From UHGV virus genome UHGV-0040703: a stretch of 12,371 nt of DNA; one strand, written 5' to 3'. A program made the position numbers and the translations under genes. The notes beneath the pieces are model-generated. The model saw nothing but the letters and a program-made list of their open reading frames with translations. It searched no databases and was not told where the DNA came from. Origin of the DNA: a virus. Positions 58 through 11,772 of this stretch are shown here, in pieces. Position 1 is the first letter of the stretch. The number at the start of each line of letters is the position of its first letter.

Positions 58-124
58 CCCCCAATGGCAACCACTCAACCTCAACCCCATCCAGCAATTT
101 TTCCAGATAACTCATCTCGCTCAT
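58..124 (-). pseudogene. hsdS: 5' remnant of a type I specificity subunit gene (hsdS), 22 codons, truncated by the IS end
   Basis: Minus-strand ATG at 124..122 overlaps the hsdM stop (ATGA) and encodes [22 protein letters not shown], which matches the recalled EcoR124-type HsdS N-terminus. The frame runs straight into the IS IR, then stops after 3 codons. Confidence 0.55.
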
Positions 125-1683
125 TTCTGCACCTCGCAGCCTTCAATTTCAGCCACAATCGCATCAATATCTTTGCGCAACTGGTCGATTTTGCTGACCG
201 TGGTTTTCAGTTCTGCATTCAACTCAGCGATATCGATAATTTCGCGAGTATCTTTCGCTTCCACATAGCTGCTCACTGACAGGTTATAGTCATTAGCGAC
301 AACGGTCTCAAACGCGACAGATTTCGCCAGATGAGCAACATCTTCCTTGCTGGCAAATACCTGCATAATCTGTTCGATATGGGCATCGGTCAGGATATTG
401 TTGTTAGTCTCTTTTTTGAATAGCTCGCTGGCGTCAATAAACTGAACGTTGGTATCGGTTTTATGTTTAGACAGCACCAGAATGTTTACGGCAATGGTGG
501 TGCCAAAGAACAGGTTCGGAGCCAGTGAAATCACGGTTTCGACATAGTTATTATCGACCAGATACTGACGGATTTTCTGCTCCGCGCCGCCACGGTAAAA
601 AATACCCGGGAAGCAGACAATCGCAGCACGACCTTTGGCCGAAAGATAGTTCAGCGCATGTAATACAAACGCAAAGTCAGCTTTGGATTTGGGGGCCAGA
701 ACGCCAGCCGGGGCAAAACGTTCATCGTTAATCAGCGTCGGGTCATCGCTGCCAATCCATTTCACCGAATACGGCGGGTTAGAAACGATGGCATCAAACG
801 GTTTTTCATCTCTGAAGTGCGGTTCAGTCAGCGTATTGCCCAGCTTGATATCAAACTTGTCGTAGTTGATGTTGTGCAAAAACATGTTCATACGCGCCAG
901 GTTATAGGTCGTATGGTTGATTTCCTGACCAAAAAAACCTTCTTCGATGATATGGTCATCAAACTGTTTTTTAGCCTGCAACAACAGCGAACCGGAGCCT
1001 GCTGCCGGGTCGTAGATTTTGTTAACGTGGGTCTGCCCGTGCATAGCCAGTTGTGCAATCAGCTTAGAGACGTGCTGCGGTGTAAAGAACTCGCCGCCTG
1101 ACTTACCGGCATTTGCCGCATAGTTAGAGATCAGGAACTCATAGGCATCACCGAACAGGTCAATCTGATGTTCGTTGAAGTCACCAAGTTTTAACCCTTC
1201 AACCCCTTTCAGAACCGCAGCCAGGCGGGCATTTTTATCTTTAACGGTGTTACCCAGGCGGTTACTGGTGGTATCGAAATCAGCAAACAAACCTTTGATG
1301 TCAGCTTCTGAAGGATAACCGTAAGCAGAACTTTCGATAGCAACGAAGATGCTGTTTAAATCTGCATTCAGTCTGTCATTGGTATTTGCTTTCGCAGCCA
1401 CGTTGCAGAAAAGCTGACTTGGGTAGATGAAGTAGCCTTTGGTTTTGATGGCATCGTCTTTAATGTCATCAGTAATTACGCTGTCATCCAGTTTCGCATA
1501 ACAGATACTGTCATCACCGGCTTCAATATAACTGGAAAAATTTTCGCTGATAAAACGGTAGAAAAGTGCGCCCAGAACGTATTGCTTAAAATCCCATCCA
1601 TCGACCGAACCCCTGACATCGTTAGCAATTTGCCAGATTTGACGATGAAGCTCTGCACGTTGTTGAATACTTGTCATTTTCAT
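121..1683 (-). CDS. hsdM: Type I restriction-modification DNA methyltransferase subunit HsdM (N6-adenine), EcoR124-like type IC family
   Basis: 520-aa ORF with AdoMet-binding motif [10 protein letters not shown] and catalytic NPPY (in SNPPYSVKW). N-terminus [25 protein letters not shown] matches the recalled R124-family HsdM. Its stop overlaps the hsdS start. Confidence 0.9.
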
Positions 1684-4343: not shown

Positions 4344-5537
4344 GTGACCTGGGACGATCACAAGAAGAATTTTGCTCGCCTGGCGCGAGATGGTGGTTAC
4401 ACCATCGCACAATATGCCGCCGAGTTTAATCTCAACCCAAACACCGCACGTCGTTATCTCCGTGCATTCAAAGAAGACACCGGAACAGCGGACAGCCGTA
4501 AGCCAAATAAGCCTGTCAGAAAACCACTAAAAAGCATGATCATTGATCACGCTAATGATCAACGTGCAAGTGATCACATTGTGGCTGAAATGGCTGAAAA
4601 ACAAAGAGTTAATGCTGTTGTCAGTGCCGCAGTCGAGAACGCTAAGCGCCAAAATAAGCGCATAAATGATCGTTCTGATGATCATGACGTGATCACCCGC
4701 GCCCACCGGACCTTACGTGATCGCCTGGAACGCGACACCCTGGATGATGATGGTGAACGCTTTGAATTCGAAGCTGGCGATTACCTGATAGATAACGTTG
4801 AAGCGCGGAAGGCCGCGCGCGCTATGTTGCGTCGATCCGGGGCCGATGTTCTGGAAACCACTCTTCTGGAAAAGTCTCTTTCTCATCTCCTTATGCTGGA
4901 GAACGCCAGGGATACGTGTATTCGCCTGGTGCAGGAAATGCGCGATCAGCAAAAAGACGATGATGAAGGTACTCCGCCTGAATACCGTATCGCGAGCATG
5001 CTAAACAGCTGTTCCGCGCAGATAAGCAGTCTGATCAACACCATTTACAGCATCCGGAATAACTATCGAAAAGAAAGCCGGGAGGCGGAAAAGCACGCTT
5101 TGTCTATGGGGCAAGCTGGCATTGTTAAGCTGGCATACGAACGAAAGCGTGAAAATAACTGGTCAGTGCTGGAAGCAGCTGAATTCATCGAGGCGCATGG
5201 CGGGAAAGTGCCGCCCCTGATGCTGGAGCAAATCAAAGCCGATCTGCGTGCTCCTAAGACCAATACCGATGATGAGGAAAGGCAAACAGCCGTCGGTGGC
5301 CCTTCTCTTGAAGATCTGGACAAAGTTGCGCGAGAACGGGCCGCCAACCGCCGCGCCGATGCCGCATTGTGGATTGAGCAGCGTAGGGAAGAAATCGCCG
5401 ATATCGTTGATACAGGCGGTTATGGAGATGTTGATACTGAAGGTGTATCAAACGACCCATGGCTGGAACAAGACCTGGACGAAGACGAGGAGGAAGACGA
5501 AGAAGTTACCCGCAAGCTATACGGGGATGATGATTAA
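4344..5537 (+). CDS. pacA: Packaging protein PacA (pacase/terminase small subunit), 397 aa
   Basis: GTG start with AAAGGAAG SD; translation [39 protein letters not shown]... The pac hexamer repeats lie inside its 5' portion, as in P1. Confidence 0.9.
4544..4733 (+). repeat. P1 pac site: seven TGATCA/TGATCG hexamers (each with a Dam GATC) in clusters of 3 and 4
   Basis: Hexamers at 4544, 4556, 4571 and at 4667, 4679, 4690, 4728. The 3+4 arrangement flanking the cleavage region matches the described P1 pac site. Confidence 0.85.
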
Positions 5538-7021
5538 TGGCCAGAAGTTGCGTAACGGATCCACGTTGGCGCGAGTTGGTGGCGCTATATCGTTATGACT
5601 GGATTGCGGCCGCTGATGTTTTGTTCGGCAAAACACCTACCTGGCAGCAGGATCTGATTATTGAGTCTGTGCAGGAACAGGGTAGCAAGACATCTGTTTC
5701 GTCTGGTCACGGTACCGGGAAATCAGACATGACTTCTATCATGATCATGTTGTTCATAATCATGTATCCCGGTGCCCGTGCCATTATCGTTGCGAACAAA
5801 ATTCAGCAGGTAATGACCGGTATATTCAAGTACATCAAGATAAACTGGGCTACGGCCACCAGCCGTTTTCCGTGGCTTGCTGATTATTTTGTTCTGACAG
5901 AAACCGCTTTTTATGAAGTTACTGGTAAAGGTGTATGGACTGTAGTACCGAAGGGCTTTCGTCTGGGAAGTGAATAAGCTCTCGCAGGTGAACACGCAGA
6001 TCATCTTCTGTATATTATCGATGAAGCCTCCGGTGTCAGTGATAGAGCTTTCGGTATCATCACCGGTGCTCTTACCGGACAGGATAACCGCATCTTATTG
6101 CTGTCACAGCCTACACGCCCAAGCGGCTATTTCTACGATACTCACCATAAACTGGCCAAGCGTCCTGGTAACCCTGATGGCGTTTATACGGCGATCACGC
6201 TTAACAGTGAGGAATCACCGCTGGTAACGCCAGCATTTATCAAAATGAAGCTGGCGGAGTACGGCGGGCGTGATAACCCTATGTACATGATTAAGGTACG
6301 CGGACTATTCCCTAAATCACAGGATGGCTTCCTTCTTGGACGTGATGAGGTTGAACGTGCGACGCGGCGGAAAGTCAAGATTGCCAAAGGATGGGGCTGG
6401 CTTGCATGTGTGGACGTTGCTGGTGGTACGGGACGGGATAAGTCCGTTATCAATATCATGATGGTGTCCGGCCAGAGAAATAAACGCCGTGTAATCAACT
6501 ATCGAATGCTGGAATACACAGACGTTACAGAAACGCAGCTTGCCGCCAAAATTTTCGCAGAATGTAATCCTGAGCGATTCCCAAATATCACCATAGCGAT
6601 AGACGGCGATGGCCTGGGTAAAGCAACGGCGGATCTGATGTACGAGTATTATGGTATTACCGTACAGCGTATACGCTGGGGTAAAAAGATGCATAGCCGT
6701 GAAGATAAGAGCCTGTACTTTGATAAACGTGCTTATGCCAACGTTCAAGCCGCAGAGGCCGTAAAATCTGGTCGTATGAGACTGGATAAGGGTAATGAAA
6801 CTATTGAGGAAGCGTCGAAAATCCCTGTAGGGATTAACTCCGCGGGTCAATGGAAAGTGATGAGTAAGGAGGATATGAAGAAAAAACTCAACCTGCACTC
6901 ACCAGACCATTGGGATACATATTGTTTCGCTATGCTGGCGGATTATGTTCCTCAGGATGAAGTGCTTAGCGTCGAAGACGAAGCGCAGGTTGATGAAGCT
7001 CTGGCATGGCTTAATGAATGA
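5537..7021 (+). pseudogene. pacB: pacB (terminase large subunit), interrupted by an in-frame TAA at 5975..5977
   Basis: One frame from 5537 to 7021 gives 494 codons, but codon 147 is TAA (..GFRLGSE*). The N-terminal fragment carries Walker A-like SGHGTGKS; the same frame resumes after the stop with [20 protein letters not shown] (Walker B). The ORF track splits it into 5537..5977 and 6098..7021. Confidence 0.75.
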
Positions 7022-7024
7022 ACA

Positions 7025-7067
7025 TTTGCTCTAATGAATTGTGTTTTTTAACTACCGATGTTACATT
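7025..7067 (+). promoter_or_regulatory. C1 operator-like 17-mer overlapping a candidate sigma70 promoter reading rightward
   Basis: TTTGCTCTAATGAATTG (7025..7041) matches 14 of 17 consensus positions. -35 TTGTGT (7039..7044), 17-bp spacer, -10 TACATT (7062..7067). Confidence 0.5.
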
Positions 7068-7173
7068 GAACCTGACCTCTTGCGCCTTGAGGCATTTTCG
7101 GTTTATGCTTATCAGGCACCTCATTAAAACGGGTGCCGGGATTGAGACCCCGGATAATGCAAAAGGCGACACA

Positions 7174-7195
7174 GACGCCAAAAGCGTCTTTTTTT
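7174..7195 (+). terminator. Rho-independent terminator (plus-strand)
   Basis: Stem AGACGC/GCGTCT around loop CAAAA, followed by T7 (7189..7195). Confidence 0.6.
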
Positions 7196-7221: not shown

Positions 7222-7340
7222 TAGCGTTTAGCTCAGAGATCAATGGTAGTGCTGGCTGGGCTGCCGAAAGGCAGGCCGGTTCCCTTTTGCGCCGGTAGTC
7301 TCAACCCAGTCAGTGCTACCGCCATTGAGATTGAGACCTC
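7222..7340 (+). ncRNA. Candidate structured regulatory RNA (c4-type antisense RNA candidate) upstream of the small ORF/antirepressor pair
   Basis: Long imperfect helix 7241..7260 with 7304..7326; internal GNRA hairpin CTGCC-GAAA-GGCAG (7261..7274); tRNA-like TAGCTCAG at 7229..7236. Two segments complement the downstream translation-initiation region: CCTTTTGC (7284..7291) with the SD GCAAAAGG (7362..7369), and CAATGG (7241..7246) with CCATTG (7376..7381) at the start codon. Confidence 0.4.
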
Positions 7341-7380
7341 ACGCGGTAGCTCCTTAAATTAGCAAAAGGAGGCTGCCATT

Positions 7381-7602
7381 GTGGCTACTATCCCTACCCC
7401 TGCTCATTCTGAATTTATCTGGCGCTTTTACTCCTGCCAAAAACGTCACTATCACTTCGTTATTGCACCGACAGAAGATGAGGCACGTTCTCAGCTTCCG
7501 GATGCTCCCTGTATTTTCTCTGCCCGCTTTTCTACCGATTCGCGCAATTCTCTCAGTTACTGGTGCCTCCCTATTAACGCTTCTGCTCAGGAGGGACTAT
7601 GA
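7381..7602 (+). CDS. Small protein, 73 codons, translationally coupled to the downstream antirepressor-like gene (icd-like position in an immI-type operon)
   Basis: GTG at 7381 eight nt after AAGGAGG (7366..7372); its stop overlaps the next ATG (ATGA at 7599..7602). An overlapping TTG-initiated frame (7379..7624) is the alternative. Confidence 0.45.
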   Translation: MATIPTPAHSEFIWRFYSCQKRHYHFVIAPTEDEARSQLPDAPCIFSARFSTDSRNSLSYWCLPINASAQEGL

Positions 7603-8711
7603 GAACGTCATTAGTCACCCGTGAAGAGATGATCGAGGCAATTGAACAGCACACTGCCTGTATCAGTACCAGGGATATACCGGGCGTTATTGCCAACTAC
7701 TTCATGATCACCAAACAACTTTACCGGAGAAAGGACAAACACGCGGTTCACCGCATTCTGCTAACCGATATCCGTGAATACCTGCTCGAACAGGGTCATC
7801 TGAATTACGCAACCGTCGCAGCCGAAGCACGCAAGGAGGCACACAGAATGAAAGCAACTAACGTTAAATCAGAAAAAATTTATGCACCTTCAGTTCAGGA
7901 ATCGGAACTGGTGGTTGTTCAGAATCAGCCGGATGAAATTCCCGTTCTGGAATGGCAGGGAGTACGTGTCGTGACAACCGAAACTCTTGCTAGAGGGTAT
8001 GGGGTCGATGAAGCCAATATTCGCAACAATTTGTCTCGCAACCTTGACCGCTTTGAAGAAGGTAAGCATTACTTTCTTCTAACTGGTTTAAAATTAAGAG
8101 AATTTAAGAACAGAGTAACCGGAAGTTACTCTGTTGGTAAGAACGCCAGAAGCCTTACACTCTGGACAGAGCGCGGCGCTGCACGCATGTCTAAGATCGT
8201 GGACACAAATGAAGCATGGGCATTCTTTGAAAAACTGGAAGACAGCTACTTCCGGCAAAAAGAACAGCAACCGGTTGCAATCCCCCAAACATTACCAGAA
8301 GCCCTACGCCTGGCTGCCGAACTGGCTGAACAAAAGCAGCTTCTGGAACAGAAAGCCCACCAGCTAAATCAGCAGCTGGTAGCCGCCGCTCCTAAGGTCG
8401 ATTTTGCCGACCGGGTATCAGTAGCTAAAGGGATCCTGATTGGGAATTTTGCAAAGGTTGTTGGACTTAAGCAAAACGCGCTGTTTGCCTGGTTACGGGA
8501 GAACGGCATCCTGATAGCGTCCGGTGGACGTAAAAATGTGCCGTTCCAGCAGTACATCAACGCGGGGTATTTCACGGTGAAAGAAGTGGTGCTGGATGAT
8601 GAAGATGGCTACCAGATACGGTTGACGCCTCAATTAACGGGTAAAGGCCAGCAGTGGTTGACGCGTAAACTGCTCGATGCTGGCTTGTTAAAACCGGTGG
8701 CGGCTGAATAA
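7599..8711 (+). CDS. ant: Antirepressor-like protein: ORF6N/KilA-N-type domain plus C-terminal KilAC domain, 370 aa, with nested in-frame start at 7848 (287 aa); Ant1/Ant2-type arrangement
   Basis: AGGAGG SD before the ATG at 7599; second strong SD AAGGAGG (7833..7839) before the in-frame ATG at 7848. Middle region VLEWQGVRVVTTETLARGYGVDEANI... resembles the ORF6N/Bro-N fold; C-terminal LPEALRLAAELAEQKQ...FADRVSVAKGILIGNFAKVVGLKQNALFAWLRENGIL...YINAGYFTVKEV resembles the KilAC signature. Confidence 0.65.
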   Translation: MRTSLVTREEMIEAIEQHTACISTRDIPGVIANYFMITKQLYRRKDKHAVHRILLTDIREYLLEQGHLNYATVAAEARKEAHRMKATNVKSEKIYAPSVQESELVVVQNQPDEIPVLEWQGVRVVTTETLARGYGVDEANIRNNLSRNLDRFEEGKHYFLLTGLKLREFKNRVTGSYSVGKNARSLTLWTERGAARMSKIVDTNEAWAFFEKLEDSYFRQKEQQPVAIPQTLPEALRLAAELAEQKQLLEQKAHQLNQQLVAAAPKVDFADRVSVAKGILIGNFAKVVGLKQNALFAWLRENGILIASGGRKNVPFQQYINAGYFTVKEVVLDDEDGYQIRLTPQLTGKGQQWLTRKLLDAGLLKPVAAE

Positions 8712-8718
8712 TGGAAGA

Positions 8719-8740
8719 ATGCCCGGTTGATGCCGGGCAT
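8719..8740. terminator. Hairpin between the convergent antirepressor-like gene and c1 (probable bidirectional terminator)
   Basis: 8-bp stem ATGCCCGG/CCGGGCAT with a 6-nt loop, flanked by AATTTATT on the plus strand and TCTTCCATTATT on the minus strand; lies between the stop codons at 8709..8711 and 8744..8746. Confidence 0.5.
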
Positions 8741-8743
8741 AAT

Positions 8744-9595
8744 TTATTGCGCGCTTTCGGGGTTGTCGTTTACTGGCTGCCCCTTCTTGGTTTTACGGCT
8801 GCGCGTAACTGATGCGGCTGACTTAACCTTTTTCTCTTCGCGAGTGATGGCAATTTGTTTTTTTACATTTTCAATATCTGCCAGGCGATATATTTTTGCT
8901 TGCGGCCAGCGGTCGCAGATGATCGGTTCTATGGAGTCATAAAGGCTAAATTTTGCTTTTTCGAATTCACCGTTGATGATAATTCCATCACGGAGAGTTT
9001 CATCGCAGATAAACACGCCACACAGTGGCACATGGTAACTAACTGATTTACCATCATTGTAGTTAGGGCTACTGGAAATGTAGTGGACGCGCAGCATTGT
9101 TTCGCTAAAGCCGTGTACGCGCATACGGAATTTTTCATCCTCCGGGTACTGCTTCATTAGCTCTTTTGTTGCTTCCAGGTTCTCTATGTATTTCGCACTG
9201 TGCTCATTGATCCCCGCGCTTTTTTGGATGCGAATATCCTTATCAATCAGATGAATAATGCGGCCAGCGGTCATGTTGACGCTGTTCACAGCCTCTGTCT
9301 GATAAGTTGTAACCTTACGCACACCGCGAAGGATGTTAGGCACTGGATATAAAATAGTCTTTGGGATATTGAGGTCTGGGTACTGTTCCAGTTCCCGCGC
9401 CATTAAAGTCCATTTATCAATTTCAGCCTGAATGCTGTCAGTTTCTTTGAACGGTAGAACGACAACCGGGCGTACAGGACGACCGTCGCTGGCTGTATCA
9501 ACGTGTTGGGCGCGTGCAACAGCTTTTTTTAGAAAGAGATCCCTGAAGCTGACGAACTCCTGGTACAGTTGTTCGCCGTAGACATAATTTATCAT
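8744..9595 (-). CDS. c1: C1 repressor of lysis (primary immunity repressor), 283 aa
   Basis: Translation MINYVYGEQLYQEFVSFRDLFLKKAVARAQHVDTASDGRPVRPVVVLPFKETDSIQAEIDKWTL... matches recalled P1 C1; 283 aa as in P1. Confidence 0.95.
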   Translation of the reverse strand: MINYVYGEQLYQEFVSFRDLFLKKAVARAQHVDTASDGRPVRPVVVLPFKETDSIQAEIDKWTLMARELEQYPDLNIPKTILYPVPNILRGVRKVTTYQTEAVNSVNMTAGRIIHLIDKDIRIQKSAGINEHSAKYIENLEATKELMKQYPEDEKFRMRVHGFSETMLRVHYISSSPNYNDGKSVSYHVPLCGVFICDETLRDGIIINGEFEKAKFSLYDSIEPIICDRWPQAKIYRLADIENVKKQIAITREEKKVKSAASVTRSRKTKKGQPVNDNPESAQ

Positions 9596-10740: not shown

Positions 10741-11772
10741 ATGTCCAATTTACTGACCGTACACCAAAATTTGCCTGCATTACCGGTCGATGCAACGAGT
10801 GATGAGGTTCGCAAGAACCTGATGGACATGTTCAGGGATCGCCAGGCGTTTTCTGAGCATACCTGGAAAATGCTTCTGTCCGTTTGCCGGTCGTGGGCGG
10901 CATGGTGCAAGTTGAATAACCGGAAGTGGTTTCCCGCAGAACCTGAAGATGTTCGCGATTATCTTCTATATCTTCAGGCGCGCGGTCTGGCAGTGAAAAC
11001 TATCCAGCAACATTTGGGCCAGCTAAATATGCTTCATCGTCGGTCCGGGCTGCCACGACCAAGTGACAGCAATGCTGTTTCACTGGTCATGCGACGGATC
11101 CGAAAAGAAAACGTTGATGCCGGTGAGCGTGCAAAACAGGCGCTGGCGTTCGAACGCACTGATTTCGACCAGGTTCGTTCACTCATGGAAAATAGCGATC
11201 GCTGCCAGGATATACGTAATCTGGCATTTCTGGGGATTGCTTATAACACCCTGTTACGTATAGCCGAAATTGCCAGGATCAGAGTTAAAGATATCTCACG
11301 TACTGACGGTGGGAGAATGTTAATCCATATTGGCAGAACGAAAACGCTGGTTAGCACCGCTGGTGTAGAGAAGGCACTTAGTCTGGGGGTAACTAAACTG
11401 GTTGAGCGATGGATTTCTGTCTCTGGTGTGGCTGATGATCCGAATAACTACTTGTTTTGCCGTGTCAGAAAAAATGGTGTTGCCGCGCCATCTGCCACCA
11501 GCCAGCTATCAACTCGCGCCCTGGAAGGGATTTTTGAAGCAACTCACCGATTGATTTACGGGGCTAAGGATGACTCTGGCCAGAGGTACCTGGCCTGGTC
11601 TGGACACAGTGCCCGTGTCGGAGCCGCGCGAGATATGGCCCGCGCCGGAGTTTCAATACCGGAGATCATGCAAGCTGGTGGCTGGACCAACGTAAATATT
11701 GTCATGAACTATATCCGTAACCTGGATAGTGAAACAGGGGCAATGGTGCGCCTGCTGGAAGATGGCGATTAG
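10741..11772 (+). CDS. cre: Cre tyrosine site-specific recombinase, 343 aa
   Basis: Translation MSNLLTVHQNLPALPVDATSDEVRKNLMDMFRDRQAFSEHTWKMLLSVCRSWAAWCKLNNRKWFPAEPEDVRDYLLYLQARGLAVKTIQQHLGQLNMLHRRSGLPRPSDSNAVSLVMRRIRKENVDAGERAKQALAFERTDFDQVRSLMENSDRCQDIRNLAFLGIAYNTLLRIAEIARIRVKDISRTDGGRMLIHIGRTKTLVSTAGVEKALSLGVTKLVERWISVSGVADDPNNYLFCRVRKNGVAAPSATSQLSTRALEGIFEATHRLIYGAKDDSGQRYLAWSGHSARVGAARDMARAGVSIPEIMQAGGWTNVNIVMNYIRNLDSETGAMVRLLEDGD is P1 Cre. Confidence 0.98.
   Translation: MSNLLTVHQNLPALPVDATSDEVRKNLMDMFRDRQAFSEHTWKMLLSVCRSWAAWCKLNNRKWFPAEPEDVRDYLLYLQARGLAVKTIQQHLGQLNMLHRRSGLPRPSDSNAVSLVMRRIRKENVDAGERAKQALAFERTDFDQVRSLMENSDRCQDIRNLAFLGIAYNTLLRIAEIARIRVKDISRTDGGRMLIHIGRTKTLVSTAGVEKALSLGVTKLVERWISVSGVADDPNNYLFCRVRKNGVAAPSATSQLSTRALEGIFEATHRLIYGAKDDSGQRYLAWSGHSARVGAARDMARAGVSIPEIMQAGGWTNVNIVMNYIRNLDSETGAMVRLLEDGD

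Follow-up and report, generated by a model that had tools for sequence, protein, structure and literature searches.

The open reading frame at 7599..8711 very probably encodes the antirepressor of a complete immI ('anti-immunity') operon of the P1 type, carried on a P1-like phage-plasmid, and is read from two nested in-frame starts. All positions refer to the window, the whole 12,371-nucleotide stretch of DNA that was analysed. The window represents a P1-like phage-plasmid and is 99.8% identical to phage JL22 over the ant region. We observed sequence features, homology to P1 and conservation, from which we infer initiation at both starts, an Ant1/Ant2 complex and C1 binding. The gene is a close relative of the P1 antirepressor gene. 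It presents a known arrangement in a new variant and does not reveal a new mechanism.

Two starts in one reading frame

The reading frame and its start signals are as follows.

7599..8711, + strand: ant1-type ORF (long isoform), 370 aa, calculated mass 41,989 Da; the stop codon ends at 8711
7848..8711, + strand: nested ant2-type ORF (short isoform), 287 aa, calculated mass 32,270 Da
7589..7594, + strand: long-form Shine-Dalgarno AGGAGG, 4-nt spacer before the ATG at 7599-7601; lies within the 3' end of icd
7833..7839, + strand: short-form internal Shine-Dalgarno AAGGAGG, 8-nt spacer before the in-frame ATG at 7848-7850

The sequence-only reading had placed one start at ATG 7599 behind AGGAGG and a second at the in-frame ATG 7848 behind AAGGAGG. 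Both are present in the sequence, and the internal Shine-Dalgarno and start region reads CACACAGA. The ORF contains 17 in-frame ATG, GTG or TTG codons, and a Shine-Dalgarno is found upstream of 7599 and 7848 only. With both strands counted, a window should contain the pattern AAGGAGG-N5-10-ATG 0.12 times by chance; at least one match occurred in 22 of 200 shuffles. We estimated the chance of finding it in one 1.1-kb ORF, on one strand and in one frame, at roughly 0.002. Homology aside, the internal Shine-Dalgarno and ATG are therefore probably not fortuitous.

The ant1 start overlaps the stop codon of the upstream ORF (icd, 7381..7602) as ATGA. Because of this overlap, the long form (Ant1-type) would probably be made from ATG 7599 by ribosomes terminating on icd, through translational coupling. 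Predicted folding leaves the long-form start region (7589-7601, including the ATG) mostly paired, with a mean unpaired probability of 0.14, which fits a dependence on coupling to icd. The short-form ribosome binding site is comparatively open in the predicted fold (unpaired probability 0.56, the 81st percentile of ORF windows). The short form (Ant2-type) would be initiated at ATG 7848 through its own strong, accessible AAGGAGG.

Homology to P1 ant1 and ant2

BLASTP aligned the whole length of the long isoform with P1 Ant1 at 57% identity (E 2e-131). The sequence-only reading took the P1 antirepressor to be two proteins from one frame, and the P1 annotation agrees: ant2 (48937..49731) is nested in ant1 (48688..49731), and 249 nt separate their starts. 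An identical offset (83 codons) lies between 7599 and 7848. The pairwise alignment that the sequence-only reading had proposed supports it: Met84 pairs with the residue annotated as the start of P1 Ant2, in the conserved peptide RKEAHRM. The nucleotide context of the internal start differs by one base between P1 (AAGGAGGCACATAGAATG) and the window (AAGGAGGCACACAGAATG), and the homologous P1 position carries a ribosome-binding-site annotation in X15639.

In P1, a heterodimeric complex of Ant1 and Ant2 is the antirepressor, and its synthesis is repressed by c4 RNA (PMC8546580). The icd gene is apparently needed for ant expression (PMC8201110). Transferring from P1 by homology, we infer that both isoforms are made from the 7599..8711 element. 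On the P1 model, the two forms would assemble with each other, bind the C1 repressor and relieve repression.

An apparent match in protein size turned out to be coincidental. The 370- and 287-residue products had been set against sizes of about 42 and 32 kDa for P1 Ant1 and Ant2. The P1 proteins are 347 and 264 aa long, with calculated masses of 38.7 and 29.0 kDa, so 42 and 32 kDa would be estimates from gels, and for proteins shorter than those encoded here. What agrees with P1 in an informative way is the 83-codon offset, not protein mass.

Conservation of the internal start

We analyzed homologous copies carrying the first 83 codons. AAGGAGG is unvaried in all 172 of them, with codon 84 reading ATG in 167 copies and GTG in the other 5. 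No homologue lacking the internal start was found among these copies. In 170 aligned sequences, 128 of 249 coding positions are variable, and AAGGAGG falls within one of the two longest invariant runs (8 nt). The homologues form only two clades, so the invariance of AAGGAGG partly reflects shared ancestry. A scan of species-representative genomes found just 6 loci, every one in Escherichia-type contigs, and deeply diverged homologues were thus not at hand.

We rejected chance or a purely coding-driven motif as the main explanation of the internal AAGGAGG-ATG. A related proposal, which we consider unlikely, is that only the long protein is made and that the motif is kept for the encoded R-K-E-A-H-R-M at the end of the N-terminal domain, not as an initiation site in this element. 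The motif does sit in a conserved peptide, and public annotations of the variant give a single CDS. A between-clade synonymous comparison is underpowered: 4 of 5 degenerate codons of K79-R83 are identical compared with 24 of 52 overall, and selection for the ribosome binding site cannot be told apart in it from selection for residues K-E-A. However, the third positions of AAG and GAG are constant in the 170 sequences, although third codon positions are the most variable class (36/60 and 19/39 polymorphic sites). The only change at codon 84 is ATG to GTG, which is still a start codon. The internal site also has a perfect 7-nt Shine-Dalgarno at optimal spacing and is predicted to be accessible. 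Finally, P1 annotation places the ant2 start, together with a separate ribosome binding site, at the homologous position, and an Ant1/Ant2 complex is reported for P1 (PMC8546580).

A second proposal concerns ribosome movement. Internal Shine-Dalgarno-like sequences have been proposed to pause ribosomes, but none of the results points specifically to such a role here. We find it extremely improbable that the main role of the internal sequence is to pause elongation, or to help ribosomes re-initiate when translation has ended early, in place of being a regular independent start. The motif and a start codon at optimal spacing are kept together without exception (172/172 copies), and the P1 precedent accounts for the feature without an extra assumption.

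Domains of the two predicted isoforms

Pfam searches and the position of the internal start divide the long isoform into three features.

7599..7847, + strand: N-terminal extension, long form only, 83 aa, four predicted helices
7944..8198, + strand: ORF6N domain, residues 116-200 (Pfam PF10543, E 2.5e-18)
8370..8675, + strand: KilAC/ANT domain, residues 258-359 (Pfam PF03374, E 1.5e-31)

Both domains lie C-terminal to residue 84 and hence within the short form, which bears out the earlier expectation that the 287-aa product retains them. In short-isoform numbering, ORF6N spans Ant2 residues 33-117 and KilAC spans 175-276. The short isoform matches the architecture of stand-alone ORF6N-KilAC antirepressors (~250-290 aa), and the long isoform departs from it by the added extension. 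The short form would thus be a self-contained ORF6N-KilAC antirepressor, and the long form would be the same protein plus an 83-residue helical module confined to the P1 lineage. The full ORF product matches PHROG 63, 'anti-repressor Ant' (E 1.3e-135). NCBI holds an identical 370-aa protein named 'phage antirepressor KilAC domain-containing protein', and a protein search with the short form listed near-identical 370-aa proteins alone.

The extension had been described as having no obvious family. This description holds for Pfam and NCBIfam, in which residues 1-83 match no model, but the extension falls inside PHROG 63 (E 3.7e-40) and is ~61% identical to the P1 Ant1 N-terminus (P1 residues 1-93). 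Its family is very narrow, with 16 representative clusters among 1.84 billion proteins in an exhaustive search. A word-indexed protein search with the extension returned mainly truncated or partial proteins, including chromosomal fragments. We set aside three other candidates. A match to bL9 among solved structures (E 0.008), the sole match in that sequence search, is spurious; an apparent 695-aa relative, P0171, is a low-complexity repeat artefact; and an Lpa-Ant fusion found with the extension as query is explicable by a deletion.

We modeled residues 1-93 with AlphaFold2 using a shallow alignment of 9 sequences. The low-confidence model (pLDDT 65.5, pTM 0.41) has helices at 8-20, 27-41, 47-64 and 70-92, and a single-sequence model of the full-length protein has a pLDDT of 39. 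From these two low-confidence models, the internal start may lie at a domain boundary, after the last predicted helix of the extension and before a stretch of ~30 residues that the full-length model shows as non-helical.

The domain content raises the question of whether the short protein alone is functional, with codons 1-83 acting in effect as a coupling or leader ORF that is in frame by chance and the 370-aa product contributing nothing by itself. The architecture of stand-alone antirepressors is already complete in Ant2, icd of phage D6 is directly followed by an antirepressor that lacks the extension, and the extension has no detectable relatives outside P1-like elements. We nevertheless judge this reading very unlikely. 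In both clades, nearly every complete copy keeps the frame open and fused, and polymorphism falls mostly on the third base of codons, indicating that the peptide is under purifying selection. Between the clades, 55 of 90 residues are identical even though about half of the codons for shared residues differ. P1 Ant1 is also reported as part of the active complex.

An exchanged middle region and a possible modular joint

The C-terminal 140 residues are ~90% identical to P1 Ant1 (BLASTP), and the KilAC portion is the only part with ~86% DNA identity to P1 ant. Over the middle region (P1 residues ~95-215), the BLASTP alignment is gapped and too weak to count as homology. We found no Pfam match in the P1 Ant1 middle region, where the window has ORF6N. 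Some other copies with the window-type extension carry a P1-type middle region, so the mismatch to P1 points to domain swapping within the family. Since ORF6N replaces the P1 middle region, Ant1-Ant2 complex formation or target specificity could differ from P1, given that the P1 middle domain might mediate Ant1-Ant2 or Ant-C1 contacts. The variant represents a natural domain swap in which the extension and nested start are retained and the middle domain is exchanged. It could serve to ask what the long isoform adds to P1-type antirepression.

The same extension precedes four different types of middle region, and in one protein two occur in tandem. In a tblastn search against phages, 354 phage records matched the middle region, and the ORF6N domain is present in stand-alone antirepressors of many phages. 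Judged from these sequences, the internal start coincides with an apparent recombination joint between the extension and exchangeable middle regions. A more speculative model, which we hold only tentatively and think somewhat doubtful, treats the nested start as a modular joint: a P1-lineage extension, always fused downstream of icd, would have recombined with interchangeable and otherwise self-sufficient antirepressor bodies, with the internal ribosome binding site and start codon unchanged where they join, and the long/short pair, more than any one antirepressor domain, would be the selected unit. If this model is true, the extension might set the stoichiometry, stability or C1 targeting of any antirepressor plugged into it.

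The operon around ant

The following features surround the antirepressor gene.

7025..7041, + strand: C1-operator-like site TTTGCTCTAATGAATTG ahead of the operon, followed closely by a possible promoter; putative function
7116..7194, + strand: isrK-like leader RNA (Rfam RF01394, 59 bits against a gathering score of 50)
7239..7326, + strand: C4 antisense RNA gene (Rfam RF01695, full-length model, 75 bits against a gathering score of 45, E 1.6e-13)
7331..7369, + strand: C4 target sites, a2 TTGAGAC at 7331-7337 and b2 GCAAAAGG at 7362-7369
7381..7602, + strand: icd homologue, 73 aa, GTG start (NCBIfam phage_ICD_like, NF033153)
8719..8740, + strand: G+C-rich terminator-like hairpin between the convergent ant and c1, nine-pair stem with six G-C pairs; putative function
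8744..9595, - strand: c1 repressor gene, convergent with ant; its counterpart is annotated c1 in RCS47 and C1.100 in JL22

The 17-mer at 7025-7041 departs from the P1 C1 operator consensus ATTGCTCTAATAAATTT at 3 positions. Six C1-operator-like sites were found in the window compared with 0.07 expected. This candidate operator is placed like P1 Oc4, upstream of c4. The isrK-like leader has an intrinsic-terminator-like hairpin (7173-7189) and a T-run at its 3' end, and its sites a1 (7142-7148) and b1 (7159-7166) are perfect complements of single-stranded segments of C4. The a2 and b2 sites are perfectly complementary to C4 positions 7298-7304 and 7283-7290 (7 and 8 nt). The b2 site overlaps the icd Shine-Dalgarno AAGGAGG (7366-7372), and the a2/b2 arrangement is the same as that of the annotated P1 sites. 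Over 63 aligned residues, the icd product shares 81% identity with P1 Icd (E 1e-39); the gene's 222-nt length and its 4-nt overlap with ant1 are as in P1.

In a prophage, C4 antisense RNA would hold off synthesis of both antirepressor forms through pairing at a2 and b2 that spans the icd ribosome binding site. In P1, C4 pairing also keeps transcription from running on into ant. The c1 product is the presumed target of the antirepressor.

Other copies and related systems

The ant copy in the window sits between pacB and c1, not at the canonical position between sim and kilA-repL. In the sampled loci, the pacB-c1 context is shared by about 54 of the ~84 copies that have the window-type extension, and the extension is present in 577 PLSDB plasmids. 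RCS47 and pTZ20_1P are examples of resistance-carrying P1-like plasmids in which this locus has been noted. Venturini et al. (2019) described the insertion as two short hypothetical ORFs and an antirepressor gene (PMC6906374). Many P1-like plasmids bear two or more such modules with differing C4 antisense specificities. The pacB-c1 copy could form an independent second anti-immunity channel.

One of the closest known systems is the c4-icd-ant operon of P1/P7. It has the same 83-codon nesting of ant1 and ant2, and its internal start likewise consists of AAGGAGG, 8 nt of spacer and ATG. The two systems also share a homologous 83-aa extension (~61%), a KilAC C-terminus (~90% identical), an icd of the same length that overlaps ant1 as ATGA, C4 with a2/b2 targets spanning the icd ribosome binding site, and an upstream site that resembles a C1 operator. 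They differ in that ORF6N stands here in place of the P1-specific middle segment, which makes the products here 23 aa longer, and in that the P1 module lies between sim and kilA-repL. The C4 recognition sequences are TTGAGAC (a) and GCAAAAGG (b) here and TTGACAG and GTTAGTGA in P1. The leader upstream of c4 matches Rfam isrK here, not c4-a1b1.

An isrK element is also found in Salmonella Gifsy-1, where isrK RNA is followed by a short ORF (orf45) that is translationally coupled (AUGA) to the antirepressor-like gene anrP (PMC4825925). In the window, the isrK-like element precedes a recognisable C4 RNA and itself contains stretches complementary to that RNA, and a nested antirepressor start is not reported for anrP. 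The c4-icd-antirepressor region of phage D6 is 94% identical to the window over 143 nt at its c4/icd 5' region, and icd overlaps the antirepressor start. The D6 antirepressor, orf82 (313 aa, Rha/Roi/KilA-like), lacks the extension, and we saw no counterpart of the nested start in it.

Stand-alone ORF6N/KilAC antirepressors from lambdoid, Stx and Gram-positive phages have the same domain order as the short isoform, and their N-termini fall within about 8 residues of its own. One of them, orf23 of Salmonella phage S137 (262 aa), is collinear with the 287-aa short isoform in tblastn. These proteins have no 83-aa extension and no nested start, and those examined have no icd or C4 context.

The 'ant' locus of RCS47, pTZ20_1P and JL22 is the same locus as that in the window, with 95-99.8% DNA identity and the neighbours pacB and c1. 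Public records of this widespread locus, like Venturini et al. (2019), give one CDS only and omit the ant2-type product and the C4 RNA. The CDS is named 'ant' in RCS47 and misnamed 'Roi DNA binding protein' in JL22. JL22 gp121, the CDS annotated over icd, corresponds to an overlapping ORF in another frame (7379..7624).

A nested start in ant

The ant frame from 7599 stays open to a stop ending at 8711. The sequence-only reading had proposed that it contains a second in-frame start with its own Shine-Dalgarno motif, yielding a 287-aa product that keeps both ORF6N and KilAC. We confirmed both starts by reading the sequence and located the domains with Pfam.

7599, plus strand: ATG of the long form; AGGAGG at 7589-7594, spacer 4 nt
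7848, plus strand: internal in-frame ATG; AAGGAGG at 7833-7839, spacer 8 nt
Residues 116-200: ORF6N
Residues 258-359: KilAC

Only 7599 and 7848, among 17 in-frame ATG, GTG or TTG codons in the ORF, are preceded by a Shine-Dalgarno motif. AAGGAGG-N5-10-ATG is expected by chance 0.12 times in the window when both strands are counted, and we estimate its in-frame chance occurrence within this single ORF at roughly 2 per thousand. Both Pfam domains begin after residue 84, and the 287-aa product therefore retains them. A Pfam search of residues 1-83 matched no family.

A nested start is itself textbook P1 biology. In the P1 reference genome, ant1 (48688..49731, 347 aa) and ant2 (48937..49731, 264 aa) are nested in frame, with the same 249-nt distance between starts as in the window. 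In the older P1 record X15639, a ribosome binding site is marked 8 nt before the ant2 ATG. BLASTP aligned the window protein to P1 Ant1 at 57% identity (E 2e-131), without gaps across residues 1-83, with RKEAHRM conserved and Met84 opposite the P1 Ant2 initiator. The DNA at the internal start reads AAGGAGGCACATAGAATG in P1 and AAGGAGGCACACAGAATG in the window. The shared offset, gapless extension and Met84 match thus support the P1-type nested-isoform interpretation, with two corrections. First, the 83-residue extension, described earlier as having no obvious family, is related to the N-termini of P1/P7 Ant1 and falls within PHROG 63 ("anti-repressor Ant"; E 3.7e-40). Second, sizes of about 42 and 32 kDa, given for the P1 antirepressor, had been matched to 370 and 287 residues. 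This fit is coincidental because the P1 proteins calculate to 38,667 and 29,040 Da and the window proteins to 41,989 and 32,270 Da. We conclude that the window ant follows the P1 ant1/ant2 arrangement, in a copy that has been relocated, has a swapped domain and differs in antisense specificity.

Conservation of the internal start

We collected 172 copies of the extension from two viral-contig scans, one genome scan and phage records. Homologues lacking the internal start, which the sequence-only reading had named as counterevidence, were absent from this set. AAGGAGG was present in 172/172 copies, and codon 84 was ATG in 167 and GTG in 5; ATG to GTG is the sole substitution there that keeps a start codon. 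An alignment of 170 sequences was variable at 128 of 249 coding positions, and AAGGAGGC was among the two longest invariant runs, with variable spacer and flanks. The copies form just two clades, one at least 90% identical to the window and the other about 60%. Degenerate codons were identical between clades at 4/5 positions in K79-R83 versus 24/52 overall, an underpowered comparison.

The internal motif could be kept purely as coding sequence. Three observations speak against this explanation: the P1 ant2 precedent, the strict co-conservation of Shine-Dalgarno motif and start codon, and the changes from ATG to GTG. The extension could instead be a mere in-frame coupling ORF, but its polymorphism is biased to third codon positions (36/60 and 19/39 variable sites) and its fusion to the antirepressor is conserved. 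A pause-site role for the internal Shine-Dalgarno motif is not needed, as the data are explained without it.

The extension family is very narrow: 1.84 billion proteins yielded 16 representative clusters. It occurs in 577 PLSDB plasmids, nearly all from Escherichia or Salmonella, and at 6 loci among species-representative genomes. Many P1-like plasmids carry the extension-bearing module in 2-4 copies (2-4 places per PLSDB record), as do viral contigs IMGVR_UViG_648276648_000009, 2713896909_000009, 646311924_000007, 651053023_000001 and 2703718869_000013. The usual set is a canonical P1-type immI plus a pacB-c1 copy; divergent pairs sometimes occur.

The start lies at a domain boundary

The window-type extension precedes four different middle regions, of which three are ORF6N variants and one is the P1-type segment, and divergence begins a few residues past Met84 (KATNVK versus KASKPD). 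In one homologous protein (P0168, 467 aa), the extension is followed by a P1-type and an ORF6N region in tandem. A low-confidence AlphaFold2 model of the extension has four helices, the last spanning residue 83 into the first short-form residues; residues 84-115 are non-helical in the full-length model, at very low confidence. Together with the middle-region swaps near Met84, these features place the nested start at a domain boundary.

We found relatives of the ORF6N region in 354 phage records, including genes that carry a stand-alone antirepressor annotation. For orf23 of Salmonella phage S137 (262 aa), the N-terminus falls no more than about 8 residues from the Ant2 start. The 5' part of the c4/icd region is common to the window and phage D6, but the D6 icd directly precedes an unrelated antirepressor that lacks the extension. 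Copies also combine leader type (isrK or c4-a1b1), extension type and genomic context in different ways. Ant2 is equivalent to an entire antirepressor; Ant1 is that protein plus a lineage-specific module. Separately, two homologues (P0033/P0034) join an Lpa N-terminus (PF25716) to Ant1 sequence starting at about residue 56, which a deletion across pacA-pacB-c4-icd would explain.

An immI-type operon surrounds ant

The module around ant is a complete immI-type operon.

7025-7041, plus strand: putative C1-operator-like 17-mer, by similarity to the operator sequence
7116-7194, plus strand: isrK-family RNA (Rfam, 59 bits)
7142-7148, plus strand: a1, repeat of the a2 sequence, within the isrK-like element
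7159-7166, plus strand: b1, repeat of the b2 sequence, within the isrK-like element
7239-7326, plus strand: C4 antisense RNA (Rfam, full-length, 75 bits)
7331-7337, plus strand: a2 (TTGAGAC), perfect complement of a C4 single-stranded segment
7362-7369, plus strand: b2 (GCAAAAGG), perfect C4 complement overlapping the icd Shine-Dalgarno motif
7381..7602, plus strand: icd homologue, GTG start, 73 aa (NCBIfam phage_ICD_like)
8719-8740: hairpin between ant and c1

The icd product and P1 Icd share 81% identity across 63 aligned residues, and the icd stop and ant start overlap as ATGA, as in P1. The C4 fold exposes two single-stranded segments, each perfectly complementary to a site downstream. The window contains 6 C1-operator-like sites versus 0.07 expected.

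P1 and other copies have a c4-a1b1 element upstream of c4, where the window has the isrK-family RNA. This RNA holds perfect complements of both C4 single-stranded segments (TTGAGAC and GCAAAAGG) and therefore takes the place of that element; it apparently also fills its role. The comparison suggests that isrK-type RNAs and a1b1 leaders represent one regulatory part in two alternative forms. Gifsy-1 isrK-orf45-anrP is a named example of an isrK-type RNA locus.

We also compared a/b targets 215-385 nt upstream of each ant1 start in homologous loci L003-L170 (7283-7369 in the window). Many combinations exist among P1-like elements: a-site variants include TTGACAG, TTAGCAG, TTGAGAC and TTGGAAC, and b-site variants include GTTAGTGA, GATTGTGA, ACTTACGA, GTACATGA, ACGAATGA, GCAAAAGG and GTCAAAGG. 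Every pair found had a perfect complement in the C4 region of its own locus; for 24 window-type copies that form one group, the fixed-offset script detected no complementary pair. Antisense specificity alleles are far more numerous than the classical P1/P7 pair.

Proposed mechanism

By analogy with P1, C4 RNA in the prophage would pair with a2/b2 and occlude the icd ribosome binding site. Biere, Citron and Schuster reportedly found in 1992 that the C4 block also keeps transcription from running into ant. Once C4 control is overcome, icd ribosomes would arrive at the ATGA overlap and initiate the long form. Pairing is predicted over most of the ant1 ribosome binding site (unpaired probability 0.14), consistent with coupling to icd translation. 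The ant2 site, comparatively open (0.56, 81st percentile), may draw ribosomes independently. icd is apparently required for ant expression (PMC8201110). The two P1 products are reported to form a heterodimeric antirepressor of C1 (PMC8546580), and the P1 annotation note concurs. For the ORF6N-type variant, we infer that both isoforms would be produced and C1 bound. The window variant offers a natural experiment on the long isoform's contribution.

Gene order and annotation

Escherichia phage JL22 matches the region at 99.8% identity and phage-plasmid RCS47 at about 95%; the two are P1-like (Punavirus). Their annotated order is doc - pdcA - pdcB - lpa - pacA - pacB - [ant module] - c1 - coi, and ant therefore sits between pacB and the convergent c1. 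Venturini et al. (PMC6906374) noted the RCS47-type insertion as two short hypothetical ORFs and an antirepressor gene.

The value of the window ant finding lies in the annotation of public records, which list one CDS at this locus. The JL22 record (L089) names the antirepressor (8300-9412) "Roi DNA binding protein" and annotates neither C4 RNA nor ant2. Its gp121 (8080-8325), over icd, matches window ORF 7379..7624; icd is the other frame, 7381..7602. An identical 370-aa protein in NCBI is named "phage antirepressor KilAC domain-containing protein".

Three further features of the window were observed. pacB (terminase large subunit, 5537..7021) has an in-frame TAA at 5975-5977, where the codon in JL22 and RCS47 is GAA (Glu147). 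Either a nonsense mutation or an error in sequencing accounts for it; a genuine stop would leave the element packaging-defective. A 520-aa ORF at 121-1683 (minus strand), directly left of phd/doc, encodes a type I restriction-modification methylase with HsdM_N and N6_Mtase domains. JL22 and RCS47 annotate lxr/hot/humD at that offset, and the window departs there from its closest phage records. Downstream of c1-coi, at the P1 cre position, lies an ordinary-looking 343-aa tyrosine recombinase (Phage_integrase domain; 10741-11772, plus strand).
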